Source: Escherichia coli O157:H7 (GTDB lineage: Bacteria > Pseudomonadota > Gammaproteobacteria > Enterobacterales > Enterobacteriaceae). Taken from it: a stretch of 64,000 bases of DNA. This document shows positions 7,517-14,988 of this stretch, one piece after another; the first letter of the stretch is position 1; every line of letters starts with the position of its first letter. Where the stretch lies: NCBI RefSeq assembly GCF_013167455.1, contig NZ_CP038328.1, one strand, 5' to 3'. The position numbers and the translations under genes are program-made. The notes under the pieces are model-generated. The model saw only the letters and a list, made by a program, of their open reading frames with translations. It was not told the DNA's origin and ran no database searches.

Positions 7517-9982
<2,466 letters not shown>

Positions 9983-9998
9983 GTTCGCTAAAAAACAG

Positions 9999-10026
9999 AA
10001 CGGGGCCACAAGGTCCCGTTTTTTTC
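9999..10026 (+). terminator. rho-independent terminator of glgCAP
   Basis: 9-bp stem (aacggggcc / ggtcccgtt, one G-U pair), loop acaa, followed by a run of 7 T. Confidence 0.8.
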
Positions 10027-10097: not shown

Positions 10098-11615
10098 ATG
10101 GACAGAATGATGCCAAATAGAAAATGGATTTTGACCTCGCTGATAATGACTTTTTTCGGCATCCCCATACTGGCGCAATTTTTGGCAGCGGTTGTTGCCA
10201 TGCTGGGTGTCGGGCTTACCGGTATTATTGAAGTTTGTAATATCCTTATCACGCCAACAATTTATCTTCTACTCAACGTCTTTATGCTGACGCTGGGGGC
10301 GATAATAATATTTTTCTCTGGTCGCGTGTGGGCCGGTGATAGCGCGCCAGAAAACAGAGAAATAGCCGTCTGGCGGCAATGCTTTTTTCTCTTACCCGCG
10401 CTATTAACCCTGGTTGGCTGGATAATCACGCTACATCTGGCAGATTATCAATTTCGCCAGATGGGAGCTGGTTGGTTGGCAAACCTTATGCTTCCCTGGT
10501 TGGGCGTTTTTTTAGTCTCATTAGTGGGTGGTGAGTACTGGTGGATGGTCATTATTCCCGTTGGGGCGCATATCAGTTTTTCGCTGGGATACGCCTGGCC
10601 GACCAGATATCCTTTATCCGGCACGTCCGGACTACGTTGCCGTAACTTACTCCTGTTTCTACTTCTCTTACTTGGTATTGTCGCCGGGTATCAGGCCCAT
10701 TTATATAAGCAGCAAAATCCTGGTGTCGGTGTACGCGAAAATATTGATATCAGGGCCTGGCGACCCGATAAACTCAATAATCGACTGACGCCGCTGCGTG
10801 GCAAACCGCAAATTCAGTTTAGGCAAAACTGGCCGCGAATCGATGGCGCCACGGCTGCGTACCCAATTTATGCTTCTGCATTTTATGCATTAAGTGTAAT
10901 ACCAGAGGATTTTCACGTTTGGGAATATCTGGAGAACTCTCGTACCCCCGATGCATATAACCGGATTGTTAAAGGTGATGCCGATATTATTTTTGTGGCG
11001 CAACCCTCCGGCGGGCAGAAAAAACGCGCTGAGGAATCGGGCGTCACTTTGCTATACACGCCATTTGCCCGTGAAGCATTTGTTTTCATCGTCAATGCGG
11101 ATAATCCGGTTAATTCCCTGACTGAACAACAGGTGCGTGACATTTTCAGTGGTGCAATTACCAATTGGCGTACTGTTGGCGGTAACGATCAGGAGATCCA
11201 GACCTGGCAGCGCCCGGAAGACTCTGGCAGCCAGACAGTGATGCAATCACAGGTCATGAAAAAAGTCCGCATGATCTCGCCGCAGGAAACGGAAGTGGCA
11301 AGCGTGATGGAGGGAATGATTAAAGTCGTTGCCGAATACCGTAATACAAACAACGCAATAGGCTATACCTTCCGCTATTACGCGACGCAAATGAATGCTG
11401 ATAAAAATATAAGATTGCTAGCGATTAACGGTATTACACCGACGGCGGAAAACATTCGCAACGGCAAATATGCGTACATCGTCGATGCATTTATGGTGAC
11501 GAGAGAAAATACAACGTCAGAAACACAAAAACTGGTCGAATGGTTTTTAACGCCGCAGGGGCAGAGTCTGGTAGAAGATGTGGGATATGTGCCGCTGTAT
11601 CTAACAATGGAATAA
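10098..11615 (+). CDS. uncharacterised fusion protein: N-terminal polytopic membrane domain (about 6 predicted TM helices, residues 1-210) plus C-terminal PstS-like periplasmic phosphate/anion-binding domain
   Basis: 505-aa ORF; N-terminal half is strongly hydrophobic. C-terminal half carries PstS-family signatures as I recall them: GATAAYPIYASAF, QRPEDSGSQ (compare RADGSGTS in PstS), IGYTFRYYA, ITPTAENIRNG. Start may be M1 or M4/M5; AGGAAG SD precedes 10098. Confidence 0.8.
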   Translation: MDRMMPNRKWILTSLIMTFFGIPILAQFLAAVVAMLGVGLTGIIEVCNILITPTIYLLLNVFMLTLGAIIIFFSGRVWAGDSAPENREIAVWRQCFFLLPALLTLVGWIITLHLADYQFRQMGAGWLANLMLPWLGVFLVSLVGGEYWWMVIIPVGAHISFSLGYAWPTRYPLSGTSGLRCRNLLLFLLLLLGIVAGYQAHLYKQQNPGVGVRENIDIRAWRPDKLNNRLTPLRGKPQIQFRQNWPRIDGATAAYPIYASAFYALSVIPEDFHVWEYLENSRTPDAYNRIVKGDADIIFVAQPSGGQKKRAEESGVTLLYTPFAREAFVFIVNADNPVNSLTEQQVRDIFSGAITNWRTVGGNDQEIQTWQRPEDSGSQTVMQSQVMKKVRMISPQETEVASVMEGMIKVVAEYRNTNNAIGYTFRYYATQMNADKNIRLLAINGITPTAENIRNGKYAYIVDAFMVTRENTTSETQKLVEWFLTPQGQSLVEDVGYVPLYLTME

Positions 11616-11640: not shown

Positions 11641-12633
11641 ATGAATAAATTCACCGGTGTTTTACTATTAGGCACGGCGTTACTGGCGGGATGTGTCGAC
11701 CGGGAAGGGTACTATAACAGCGTCAGGGAAGAAGAGAGCCATGGACTGACGTCTCTGCGGGGGCAACCTGCATTACGTTACAGCGATGATTGGTCAAGAT
11801 GGCCGAGAGTGTACGGCGCTACAGCCTTATACCCGCTGTATGCCTCCGCGTATTATAAATTAGTACCCGAGCCAAAAGATAAGGATCGAACCTCGCTGGC
11901 CTGGCAGGCGTATGGTTTGCAGCAAACCCGAACAGCTGAAGCCTACGATAGTCTGATTAAAGGTTCCGCGACGGTTATTTTTGTTGCACAACCGTCGGAA
12001 GGACAGAAAAAACGTGCAGAAGAAGCGGGTGTTAAACTGAAATATACCGCTTTCGCCCGCGAAGCCTTTGTCTTTATCGTTGATATTAATAACCCGGTAA
12101 ATTCTCTCTCTGAGCACCAGGTTAAAGATATTTTTAGCGGCAAAACTAGCCGCTGGAATAAAGTAGGTGGTAGTGACGAACATATAAAAGTCTGGCAGCG
12201 CCCTGAAGATTCTGGAAGCCAAACGATTATGAAGGGGTTGGTTATGCAAGACACCCCAATGCTGCCAGCTAAAAAATCCACTGTGATTGATCTTATGGGC
12301 GGTTTAATTACTGAAGTTGCCGACTATCAAAACACGCCATCTTCCATTGGGTACACCTTCCACTATTACGTCACTCGTATGAATGACAATATGCTCAAAA
12401 TGCGCAAGCAGATTAAACTTTTGGCTATAAATGGCGTTGCGCCTACCGAGGAAAATATCCGCAACGGCACTTATCCATACATTGTGGATGCCTATATGGT
12501 GACGCGTGAAAATCCCACGCCGGAAACGCAGAAATTTGTTGACTGGTTTATAAGTCAGCAGGGGCAACAGTTGGTAGAGGATGTGGGGTATGTGCCGCTG
12601 TATGAAGCATCCCCCGAATCATCAGGACAATAA
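11641..12633 (+). CDS. PstS-like phosphate/anion-binding lipoprotein (paralog of the C-terminal domain of the upstream gene)
   Basis: 330-aa ORF; signal peptide with lipobox LLAGC; roughly 60-70% identity by eye to residues 230-505 of ORF 10098-11615, sharing the FVAQPS.GQKKRAEE, AREAFVFIV, WQRPEDSGSQT and VEDVGYVPLY blocks. Confidence 0.85.
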   Translation: MNKFTGVLLLGTALLAGCVDREGYYNSVREEESHGLTSLRGQPALRYSDDWSRWPRVYGATALYPLYASAYYKLVPEPKDKDRTSLAWQAYGLQQTRTAEAYDSLIKGSATVIFVAQPSEGQKKRAEEAGVKLKYTAFAREAFVFIVDINNPVNSLSEHQVKDIFSGKTSRWNKVGGSDEHIKVWQRPEDSGSQTIMKGLVMQDTPMLPAKKSTVIDLMGGLITEVADYQNTPSSIGYTFHYYVTRMNDNMLKMRKQIKLLAINGVAPTEENIRNGTYPYIVDAYMVTRENPTPETQKFVDWFISQQGQQLVEDVGYVPLYEASPESSGQ

Positions 12634-13235
12634 TGATGAATATAATCAGACTTTATATTTATCCGTTATTTCTCGGCTTTGTTATTGTACCGTTGTTGGT
12701 GTGGCCGACGGTGGTTGCGCTGGCTGCCTGTGTAATCACGCTGAGTTTTCTGGGAGAAATACTGTTCTCAATCCCGCTCATGCACAGGCGTATTTCCCTT
12801 CTGCAATTACAACTATGGTTATCGGCTGAATATGCGCTTTTCTTCTGTGCAATGGTGGGCGTTGGTTGGCAATTTGCGCGCAGAACGCCACCTGAATTGA
12901 AAAGCAGACTGCATTGTTGGCTGGTATTTGCACCAGTTTATTTCTGGTTGCTCCTGTGGAATATCATTTTTTATGTCGCGCCAGCGCAAATTGCTTTGCT
13001 GGAAAATATGCGCAGTTTCTTTCTGACAGTTGTCTGGCTCCCACTGAATTTTTCGCCATTTTGGTCTCAACAGTGGATCGACTTTGTCGGTCCGATAAGT
13101 GCACAGCTTGGTTTTGCGTTGGGATATTATTGCCAGTGGCGTAGCAAAAATAGAAGCCAGATACGGAAGTGGAGTGAGTGGGGAACGTGCTTAAGTTTTG
13201 TTACGTTGGGTATGATGGCGTGGGCTTTGCGGTAA
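12633..13235 (+). CDS. integral membrane protein (about 6 TM), paralog of the N-terminal membrane domain of ORF 10098-11615
   Basis: 200-aa hydrophobic ORF; its ATG overlaps the upstream stop (TAATG); shares LGFALGYYCQW versus ISFSLGYAWPT and a similar helix spacing with the ORF1 N-domain. Confidence 0.7.
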   Translation: MMNIIRLYIYPLFLGFVIVPLLVWPTVVALAACVITLSFLGEILFSIPLMHRRISLLQLQLWLSAEYALFFCAMVGVGWQFARRTPPELKSRLHCWLVFAPVYFWLLLWNIIFYVAPAQIALLENMRSFFLTVVWLPLNFSPFWSQQWIDFVGPISAQLGFALGYYCQWRSKNRSQIRKWSEWGTCLSFVTLGMMAWALR

Positions 13236-13449: not shown

Positions 13450-14955
13450 TTACGACGCCAGCGACAACTTCTGCTGCGTATATTCCACCAGCCACTGACT
13501 CACACGAGATTGTTGATCCGCATTCAGCCACATGCCTTGTTTTGTGCGACGCCACAGGGCATCGTCGGCGCGGCGGACCCACTCGTGGTCGACCAGATAT
13601 TTCAGCTCCGTTTCGTAGAACTCATGACCGAAATCTTCCCCAAGATCGCTTACCGCTCCCGCATTGCCGAGCAGCAGCTCGCTGTTGCTGCCATAAGTAC
13701 GCGCGTAATGACGTGCCAGCGATTCGGTCAGGAACGGATAACGGCGGCGTAAGCGAGCGGCATAATCGTCGCGGTCGCCCTCGATGGCGCCACCCGGTAG
13801 CACGCTCTCTTTCGTCCATGCCGGGCCAATACCCTGATAATACGGCGTTAGTTTTTCCAGCGCATGTTCCGCCAGTTTTCGGTAGGTGGTCAGCTTACCG
13901 CCGAATACCGACAGCAGCGGTGCTTTGCCATTTTCATCATGAATATCAAGGGTGTAATCACGGGTAATAGCCTGCGGCGAGTCGGACTCATCATCACACA
14001 GCGGACGCACACCGGAGTAGGTCCAGACGATATCGTCACGGCTAAGCTGTTTTTTAAAGTGCGCGTTATACACTTTCAGCAGGTAATTGATTTCACTCTC
14101 TTCAATCTTCACTGCTTTCGGATCGCCTTTGTATTCCACATCGGTGGTGCCGATGATGGAAAACTCGTCCATCCACGGGATCACGAACACAATACGTTTA
14201 TCTTCGTTTTGCAGAATGTAGGCCTGCTTTTGGGTATGCACGCGCGGCACCACAATATGGCTGCCTTTGATCAGGCGAATGCCATAAGGCGAAGGCAGAT
14301 GCATCCCGTCGTCGAAGAACTGTTTCACCCACGGGCCGGTGGCGTTAACCAGGCCGCGCGCTTGCCAGCTATATTTTTTGCCGGTATCGATATCTTCCGC
14401 TTCCACAATCCACAGGCCGTTTTCGCGACGAGCAGAAGTAGCACGAGTACGAGTAAGCACTTCGCCGCCTTTACGCACCACCATCTGGGCGTTGGCGAGC
14501 ACCAGACGGGCATCGTCTACCCAACAGTCGGAATATTCGAATCCGCGCTTAATTTCCGGTTTTAACACTGAATTTGCGCCAAAACGCAAACCAGTTGATC
14601 CCGGCAGGCTGGTGCGTTTACCCAGATGATCGTACATAAACAGACCAATGCGAATCATCCACGCCGGGCGCAGATGCGGACGATGTGGCAGGCGAAAACG
14701 CATCGGGAAGGCGATATGCGGGGCCATTTTCAGCAGCACTTCACGTTCAGCCAGCGCCTCGCTGACCAGGCGGAATTCATAGTGCTCAAGGTAGCGCAGG
14801 CCACCGTGAATGAGTTTTGAACTGGCGGAAGAGGTCGCGCAAGCGAGATCCTGCGCCTCCAGCATCAGCACGGATAAACCGCGTCCAGCGGCGTCTGCCG
14901 CGATACCAGCACCATTGATGCCGCCACCTATCACAATCAGATCTTTGGTTTCCAT
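13450..14955 (-). CDS. glpD: aerobic sn-glycerol-3-phosphate dehydrogenase
   Basis: ORF track 13450-14970; protein METKDLIVIGGGINGAGIAADAAGRGL... (FAD GGGxxG motif); start set at the internal Met to give the 501-aa form. Confidence 0.95.
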   Translation of the reverse strand: METKDLIVIGGGINGAGIAADAAGRGLSVLMLEAQDLACATSSASSKLIHGGLRYLEHYEFRLVSEALAEREVLLKMAPHIAFPMRFRLPHRPHLRPAWMIRIGLFMYDHLGKRTSLPGSTGLRFGANSVLKPEIKRGFEYSDCWVDDARLVLANAQMVVRKGGEVLTRTRATSARRENGLWIVEAEDIDTGKKYSWQARGLVNATGPWVKQFFDDGMHLPSPYGIRLIKGSHIVVPRVHTQKQAYILQNEDKRIVFVIPWMDEFSIIGTTDVEYKGDPKAVKIEESEINYLLKVYNAHFKKQLSRDDIVWTYSGVRPLCDDESDSPQAITRDYTLDIHDENGKAPLLSVFGGKLTTYRKLAEHALEKLTPYYQGIGPAWTKESVLPGGAIEGDRDDYAARLRRRYPFLTESLARHYARTYGSNSELLLGNAGAVSDLGEDFGHEFYETELKYLVDHEWVRRADDALWRRTKQGMWLNADQQSRVSQWLVEYTQQKLSLAS

Positions 14956-14988
14956 GCTGCCCTCATTCACTTTCGTTAAAGTTCATAA

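Follow-up and report, generated by a model that had tools for sequence, protein, structure and literature searches.

An inner-membrane-anchored orphan member of a PstS-like subfamily encoded between glgP and glpD in Escherichia coli O157:H7

Binding proteins of the PstS fold are soluble or lipid-anchored partners of ATP-binding cassette (ABC) importers. The gene considered here, an open reading frame (ORF) designated ORF-A in the interval between glgP and glpD of Escherichia coli O157:H7, encodes a PstS-like binding domain in one polypeptide with a polytopic membrane domain, and the locus raises the question of what a binding domain joined to the membrane in this way is for. Coordinates given without a locus number refer to the window, which is the whole stretch of 64,000 nucleotides (nt) from contig NZ_CP038328.1 (assembly GCF_013167455.1) that was analysed. 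ORF-A is described below as an inner-membrane-anchored orphan member of a distinct PstS-like subfamily, without a transporter partner in its genomic context, and a tentative function as a tethered ligand receptor is weighed against the alternatives.

A single gene with two conserved domains

A preliminary description of the locus had proposed the fusion of a polytopic domain to a PstS-like domain, and this was confirmed by a match of residues 247-485 to the Pfam family PBP_like_2 (PF12849, E 1.2e-28) and by the AlphaFold2 model, in which six helices (residues 6-47, 53-82, 87-114, 124-144, 149-169 and 177-206) are followed by an alpha/beta binding fold. The full-length model was built from an alignment of 30 full-length homologues and had a mean pLDDT of 85 and a pTM of 0.70, and the membrane domain modelled alone reached a pLDDT of 88.8 and a pTM of 0.84. 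The junction between the domains (about residues 207-245) was hydrophilic and without an in-frame stop, as had been described. It is not a random spacer since it carries a conserved motif, E-x-[IV]-D-x-x-x-[YW]-x-P-[FD]-x-x-x-N-x-L, which is common to all helix-anchored members of the family and reads RENIDIRAWRPDKLNNRL in ORF-A.

The same description had cautioned that a single-base error could have made a false fusion and had called for the frame to be verified in independent assemblies, where it was found intact. The caveat was refuted by the presence of the intact gene in 3339 of the 5426 complete E. coli genomes (~62%), counted as at least 80% of the gene at 88-100% nucleotide identity, and by full-length orthologues elsewhere. 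ORF-A was annotated as a single coding sequence in every listed row of an even-step sample of E. coli, and O157:H7 chromosomes were 100% identical over a 3.4-kb stretch around it. Orthologues of ~500 amino acids (aa), with 97-99% query cover and 36-54% identity, were identified in Salmonella, Klebsiella, Intestinirhabdus, Phytobacter, Budviciaceae, Rahnella, Leclercia and Brachymonas. A comparison of the O157 allele with a second E. coli allele of 89% identity gave a dN/dS ratio of 0.126 overall, with 0.18 in the membrane domain, 0.16 in the linker and 0.08 in the binding domain; purifying selection acts on both domains.

Table 1. Positions of ORF-A, its parts and the accompanying features in the window
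Feature	Coordinates	Strand	Extent	Evidence or remark
ORF-A, fused gene	10098-11615	+	505 aa	Uninterrupted frame; RefSeq start ATG 10107, 502 aa, WP_000982774.1
ORF-A membrane domain	10098-10715	+	Residues 1-206	Six predicted helices
Three-helix core (helices 4-6)	10467-10715	+	Residues 124-206	Includes K/R-rich loop 167-182; tblastn, alignment, hhalign, K+R statistics
Juxtamembrane linker	10716-10832	+	Residues 207-245	Motif conserved
PstS-type binding domain	10833-11612	+	Residues 246-505	PF12849, TIGR02136, profile alignment to 4Q8R, invariant columns
ORF-B, PstS-like lipoprotein	11641-12633	+	330 aa	Signal peptide with lipobox LLAG-C
ORF-C, polytopic membrane protein	12633-13235	+	200 aa	Paralogue of ORF-A residues 1-200 (hhalign)
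Hairpin and T-run 3' of the glgP stop	9998-10026	+		Read directly from the sequence

The binding domain and its ligand site

The binding domain matched solved PstS structures with an E-value of 1e-19, or 1.9e-25 when the family profile was used. Against TIGR02136, ORF-A and ORF-B scored 122.2 and 119.1 bits respectively, both below the curated cut-off of 206.6. Signatures of the domain included DGATAAYP, SRTP, FVAQPS, FAREAFVF, QRPEDSGSQ and GYTFRYY. Ligand-site equivalences were taken from a profile alignment to the clostridial PstS structure 4Q8R, in which the family segments G-A-T-A (250-253), S-R-T-P (with T283), V-A-Q-P (300-303) and Q-R-P-E-D-S-G-S are aligned with G-S-T-S, G-S-S-A, A-S-R-D and S-R-E-D-G-S-G-T, respectively. 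Residues T252, T283, R372, S376, G377 and S378 were invariant or nearly so in the family. The phosphate-ligand set of E. coli PstS comprises T10, F11, S38, D56, R135, S139, G140 and T141, and T252, T283, R372 and S376-G377-S378 presumably correspond to T10, S38, R135 and S139-G140-T141. Four further residues, E326, R426, Y428 and W357, were invariant and specific to the family. The predicted pocket very probably binds a phosphate-type oxyanion or a phosphoryl group, and its specificity need not match that of canonical PstS.

Distribution and architectures of the family

A scan of one genome per species for the binding-domain peptides [AS][LI]GY[ST]FRYY and [WYF]QRPx[DGN]SGSQ located the family in at least 577 species genomes (577 confirmed relatives among the 600 stretches listed), which belong to Bacillota, Actinomycetota, Campylobacterota, Spirochaetota, Bacteroidota, Planctomycetota, Synergistota and several classes of Pseudomonadota. 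ORFs were reconstructed in the best 80 loci, and the architectures and the counts of neighbours given below refer to these. A long class of ~480-525 aa has six helices, as does ORF-A, and a short class of ~380-400 aa, mostly from Bacillales and also present in Pasteurella and Prevotella, has three. The helices of the short class are equivalent to helices 4-6 of ORF-A, as the tblastn alignments start at query residues 125-130, and hhalign matched the second three-helix unit of ORF-A to the short class with a probability of 88%. Across the family the binding domain is anchored by six helices, by three helices, by one helix after a cytoplasmic enzyme domain or as a lipoprotein, and conservation is far higher in the binding domain than in the membrane domain. 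Models with the same full-length architecture were retrieved from AFDB by Foldseek for Cytobacillus (TM-score 0.73, 29% identity), Lentilactobacillus, Clostridia and Propionicimonas.

The member with a single helix was found in a Defluviitaleaceae metagenome-assembled genome (L046:2670-4988), where one frame of 775 aa comprises a glutamate-cysteine ligase domain (TIGR01436, E 1e-55), one helix, the linker and the PstS-like domain, and is followed by a glutathionylspermidine-synthase-like gene. This fusion, from a single metagenome-assembled genome, may hint, in Rosetta-stone fashion, at control of thiol metabolism by a ligand.

The membrane domain, its topology and docking

The membrane domain of ORF-A had no match in Pfam, none in NCBIfam and no relative among the solved structures of the PDB. 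Foldseek against AFDB50 returned family members only, and a phmmer search of 1.84 billion representatives gave only 47 matches, all of which were family members or fragments of them. The near-invariant residues of the domain were restricted to P23, P133, P154 and Q199, and a conserved set of charged or polar intramembrane residues, as would be expected in a transporter or an enzyme, was absent from it. Neither ORF-A nor ORF-C had a Pfam or structural match to the membrane components of TRAP (DctQ/DctM) or TTT (TctA/TctB) transporters. The six-helix class contains two copies of a [K/R tail]-helix-turn-helix-[K/R loop]-helix pattern, which hints at a possible tandem duplication of a three-helix unit; in an hhalign comparison the internal duplication was in register but weak (probability 30%, E 5.6e-4).

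In the short class a single loop, that between helices 2' and 3', is rich in K/R (3.9 K+R), and the predicted orientation is unambiguous, with the N-terminus inside and the binding domain outside. The binding domain of ORF-A would likewise be expected to face the periplasm, because its paralogue ORF-B, which in its mature form is 57% identical to it, is an exported lipoprotein, because helices 4-6, the core, share homology with the three helices of the short class, and because the fusion of an enzyme, one helix and a binding domain requires an outside location. In the long class the K+R values were 2.4 for the N-tail, 3.5 for loop 2-3 and 4.2 for loop 5-6. Six passes put the N-tail and loop 2-3 on the face opposite loop 5-6, and the positive-inside rule is not satisfiable. 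A periplasmic binding domain would put the N-tail and loop 2-3 outside, which is an unusual orientation. The preliminary description had named a cytoplasmic location of the binding domain as a point that would overturn it, and on this the evidence is divided, with the lipoprotein paralogue and the three-helix class favouring the periplasm and the charge count of the six-helix class, taken up below, leaning slightly the other way.

Full-length models of homologues with 29-52% identity superposed with ORF-A at TM-scores of 0.73-0.74. As the binding domain makes up only ~56% of the residues, scores of this size indicate that both domains superpose at once, and the models suggest that the binding domain is docked on the helix bundle in a fixed geometry. 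Whether the binding domain docks onto the membrane domain in an AlphaFold model had been raised in the preliminary description, and the predicted structures agree with one another on the docking geometry.

Genomic context

ORF-A, ORF-B and ORF-C, all on the plus strand, fill the interval from glgP (7535-9982, plus strand) to glpD (13450-14970, minus strand), which is O-island 133 (OI-133) of strain EDL933 (PMC2907692). No permease or ATPase gene was present in this interval. Clustering of the ORFs in the 80 loci detected no conserved neighbour, no conserved transporter gene and no linkage to pstC, pstA, pstB or phoU, and the earlier claim that the gene does not belong to an ABC importer locus was upheld by the lack of a conserved permease or ATPase neighbour. 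The neighbours at operon distance were unrelated housekeeping genes, for example ruvB, tyrS, leuA, radA and asd. A cluster present at 17 loci was considered as an operon partner and rejected, as it consisted of generic ABC ATPases at variable distance and on variable strands.

In the upstream regions of 12 proteobacterial members the best Pho box candidates matched 8-10 of 14 positions, the same as in shuffled controls. An Rfam scan of 22 Bacillota loci identified no riboswitch 5' of the family gene, and the Guanidine-I and T-box matches near Bacillota family genes were discounted, as they belong to neighbouring genes. Guanidine-I riboswitches were located directly 3' of the family gene in Lysinibacillus (L035:6980-7076 and L048:6959-7057), where they presumably control the next gene and not the family gene. 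A role in anti-phage defence was also considered and rejected, with no PADLOC match for ORF-A, ORF-B or ORF-C.

Genes for signalling proteins were adjacent to the family gene in some lineages. A histidine kinase of ~430 aa with a polytopic N-terminus and no evident extracytoplasmic domain was encoded in Paenibacillus (L027:4637-5938, L032:4520-5809 and L067:4649-5938). In three genomes the stop of this kinase overlaps the start of a three-helix family gene by 4 nt, and in a fourth the kinase is truncated; htpG lies downstream of the pair. GGDEF cyclases were encoded ~0.2-2 kb downstream of the family gene in 4 loci, and a 150-aa protein with a helix-turn-helix domain directly upstream of it in 7 loci.

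A proposed tethered receptor and the alternatives to it

The function that we favour for ORF-A, with a probability of about 0.4, is that of a tethered ligand receptor which is read via lateral contacts with unlinked partners. The binding domain would reside in the periplasm, held in a fixed orientation on the helix bundle, and would capture a phosphate-type oxyanion or a phosphoryl group with a specificity unlike that of canonical PstS. Occupancy of the pocket would then be read through lateral contacts, in the membrane or in the periplasm, with partners encoded elsewhere, candidates for which are kinases or cyclases with intramembrane sensing, or paralogues, ORF-C among them. The membrane module would serve as a positioning and docking platform and not as a pore. 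Such a mechanism is proposed because ORF-A lacks both an output domain in the cytoplasm and a permease or ATPase linked to its gene. It also fits an anchor that varies across the family with the binding domain and linker constant, a bundle without transporter-like features, and a sporadic coupling to intramembrane kinases and cyclases.

The preliminary description had suggested that the binding domain signals to, or gates, the membrane domain and does not deliver ligand to an ABC permease. The conserved fusion, the lack of an ABC locus among the 80 examined and the fixed docking suggested by the models are in keeping with this in part, although the gating component was weakened. Chemoreceptor-like logic within one polypeptide is not possible, as the protein has no output domain in the cytoplasm and its predicted cytoplasmic loops have at most 16 residues.

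Several observations count against a tethered receptor. No partner was conserved across the family, and the links to signalling genes were lineage-restricted, each being present in 3-7 of the 80 loci. The ligand loop that contains S55-D56, which reads ASD in E. coli PstS and ASRD in 4Q8R, reads VAQPS in ORF-A, and with this loop the binding of phosphate itself would not be assured. The K+R count of the long class was ambiguous and slightly favoured a cytoplasmic binding domain. The genes of OI-133 appear to have low expression in culture (PMC2907692). Lastly, ORF-C had a dN/dS of 0.23 at a dS of 0.84, and purifying selection on this protein suggests a role for the helix bundle beyond tethering.

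An alternative is that ORF-A is a tethered binding protein that hands phosphate or a related anion to an unlinked PstCA-PstB or other ABC importer, with the helices as a mere anchor. The homology to PstS is clear and most ligand positions are kept, the helical anchor is exchanged in the family for a lipoprotein anchor, which is usual for binding proteins, and some binding proteins encoded alone are known to serve transporters whose genes lie elsewhere. However, the gene was never beside permease or ATPase genes in the 80 loci, its upstream regions in the 12 proteobacterial members contained no Pho box above the shuffled controls, and the protein scored far under the TIGR02136 cut-off and has one ligand loop altered. 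The conserved three-helix core and linker also exceed what a tether needs, and Gram-negative binding proteins need no tether. Delivery to an unlinked importer is considered unlikely.

The pocket might instead recognise a phosphorylated envelope molecule, such as a lipid head group, a polyprenyl phosphate or a phosphate of teichoic acid or lipopolysaccharide, at the membrane surface. The conserved and rigid linker would keep the domain near the membrane in every helix-anchored member, the remodelled S55-D56 loop and the invariant E326, R426, Y428 and W357 could enlarge the pocket, and the gene is solitary and stands in housekeeping contexts. This proposal is purely inferential, however, with no linkage to cell-envelope genes, and the +2 residues of the lipoprotein paralogues would, by the +2 rule, place these on the outer membrane. 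Binding of an envelope molecule is considered distinctly unlikely.

Gating by the binding domain of its own membrane domain, as a new small binding-protein-dependent channel or secondary transporter, is in our view very unlikely. Covalent coupling of the two domains is conserved in hundreds of species and the predicted docking geometry is fixed, the twice-repeated pattern of helices and charges hints at an antiparallel duplicated three-helix unit, as in many transporters, and a membrane-only paralogue (ORF-C) has been maintained. A gated membrane effector had been one form of the original suggestion, but the interchangeable anchor and the ~4 near-invariant membrane residues argue for a platform or tether, and the membrane domain is unlike any known channel, transporter or enzyme.

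Finally, the chance that ORF-A is an artefact, whether a pseudogene or a false union of two genes through a frameshift or sequencing error, is vanishingly small and was ruled out by the orthologues, the E. coli survey and the dN/dS, for although the locus has decayed in some lineages (K-12 keeps only a stub, yzgL, and truncated copies exist), the same frame is intact across thousands of independent assemblies and in distant genera, with a dN/dS of 0.13 and a conserved linker.

The paralogues ORF-B and ORF-C

ORF-C aligned with the membrane domain of ORF-A in hhalign with a probability of 97% and an E-value of 8.5e-11 over 173 collinear columns, and the pattern P-[VI]-[GS]-A-[HQ]-[IL]-[SG]-F-[SA]-L-G-Y is located at residues 154-165 in both proteins. 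The start of ORF-C overlaps the stop of ORF-B by one base (TAATG). Together, ORF-B and ORF-C look like a split version of ORF-A. A designed split was considered and was weakened by the gene at the ORF-C position in Pseudocitrobacter, by the arrangement in E. coli EC21Z-101 and by the predicted sorting of ORF-B.

The ORF-C position in Pseudocitrobacter (L008:7002-8057) is occupied by a 351-aa membrane domain together with a decayed and internally deleted binding domain, and descent of ORF-C from a second fused gene is suggested. In E. coli EC21Z-101 (L089:4533-6013) two unrelated genes stand in place of ORF-B, with ORF-A and ORF-C kept; these replacements encode hypothetical, Cys-rich and apparently cytoplasmic proteins of 236 and 255 aa without an informative family match. 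The residue that follows the lipid-modified cysteine of ORF-B is valine, and the +2 rule predicts that ORF-B would be sorted to the outer membrane. The lipoprotein paralogues carry Val, Gly, Ser or Ile at this position.

In Salmonella enterica (L006:3234-8909) two ORF-B-like genes for PstS-type lipoproteins were each located before a short frame that resembles an Rhs N-terminus (MSGKPAARQND...GGPIVQGSAGVLIG). Downstream of each frame lie, in this order, a gene for a small putative toxin (an HExxH protein or Ntox34) and a putative immunity gene (for a lipoprotein or a HEAT_2 protein). The array resembles a cassette that is repeated within an island of Rhs or type VI effectors.

The island and its alleles

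The same site between glgP and glpD houses the gene in Escherichia, Salmonella and Pseudocitrobacter. The gene of Rahnella lies between purB and phoPQ, that of Budviciaceae at other sites, and essentially no plasmid carriage of ORF-A was found. The G+C content of the island was 45-48% versus 51-56% in its flanks. Between E. coli alleles dS was 0.43 for ORF-A and 0.84 for ORF-C, compared with 0.045 for the adjacent glgP, a difference of 10-20x. The elevated dS and the lower G+C content indicate that the alleles of the island either diverged long ago or were exchanged horizontally, at a chromosomal site that stayed the same.

The hairpin 3' of glgP (Table 1) is probably the glgP terminator, and if it does terminate glgP, ORF-A would begin a separate transcription unit. 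A TATAAT hexamer ~25 nt 5' of the ORF-A ATG was read by eye and was absent from the listing of a consensus scan.

K-12 yzgL (10098-10332 in the window) corresponds to the first ~235 nt of ORF-A at 89% identity, and the rest of the island has been lost. It occupies the same chromosomal site but appears to be a deletion stub of the ORF-A gene, and K-12 is without a functional copy.

Relation to known systems and implications

ORF-A has the fold of PstS, clear homology to it and equivalents of most of its ligand residues. It differs in being anchored by a polytopic bundle where PstS is free or lipid-anchored, in having no pstCAB or phoU linkage across the 80 loci, no Pho box above the shuffled controls and a score below the TIGR02136 cut-off, and in its VAQPS loop and its own signatures FAREAFVF and GY[ST]FRYY. 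In the OpuA and GlnPQ importers substrate-binding domains are fused to an ABC permease. ORF-A is similar to these in having a covalent link between a binding fold and a polytopic membrane domain, by which the receptor is kept at the membrane, but its membrane domain has no BPD_transp or structural match, no ATPase gene is nearby, and the order of the parts is membrane domain first and binding domain last. TRAP and TTT systems differ from ORF-A in having components of the DctQ/DctM or TctA/TctB type.

Binding proteins also act as co-sensors for membrane receptors, as in LuxP-LuxQ, TorT-TorS and PstS-CtpL (PMC8050422). The family fold would sense in a comparable manner, and in three Paenibacillus genomes the gene is translationally coupled to that of a sensor kinase without an external domain. 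Those co-sensors, however, are free or lipid-anchored and have known partners, whereas ORF-A carries its own bundle. In contrast to a sensor kinase, a chemoreceptor or a cyclase, the ORF-A polypeptide ends with the binding domain and has no output domain. A more far-reaching idea is that the three-helix core, the linker and the PstS-like domain constitute an unrecognised binding-protein-dependent device outside the ABC, TRAP and TTT systems, which would be either a portable co-sensor for intramembrane-sensing kinases or cyclases or, in a six-helix form made of two antiparallel three-helix units, a small ligand-gated device for the uptake or flipping of a phosphorylated compound; we consider this improbable.

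No functional study was found in the literature on yzgL, OI-133, PBP_like_2 and PstS fusions. Databases already contain the family sequences and AlphaFold models under the generic PstS name, and in RefSeq both ORF-A and ORF-B are named 'PstS family phosphate ABC transporter substrate-binding protein' and ORF-C 'hypothetical protein'. The PstS label conceals the membrane half of ORF-A and probably misstates its function, and the annotations of thousands of genomes now carry it. In non-K-12 E. coli the gene is open to direct experiment, and the ligand and partners of ORF-A could reveal a new way in which extracytoplasmic binding is coupled to the membrane.

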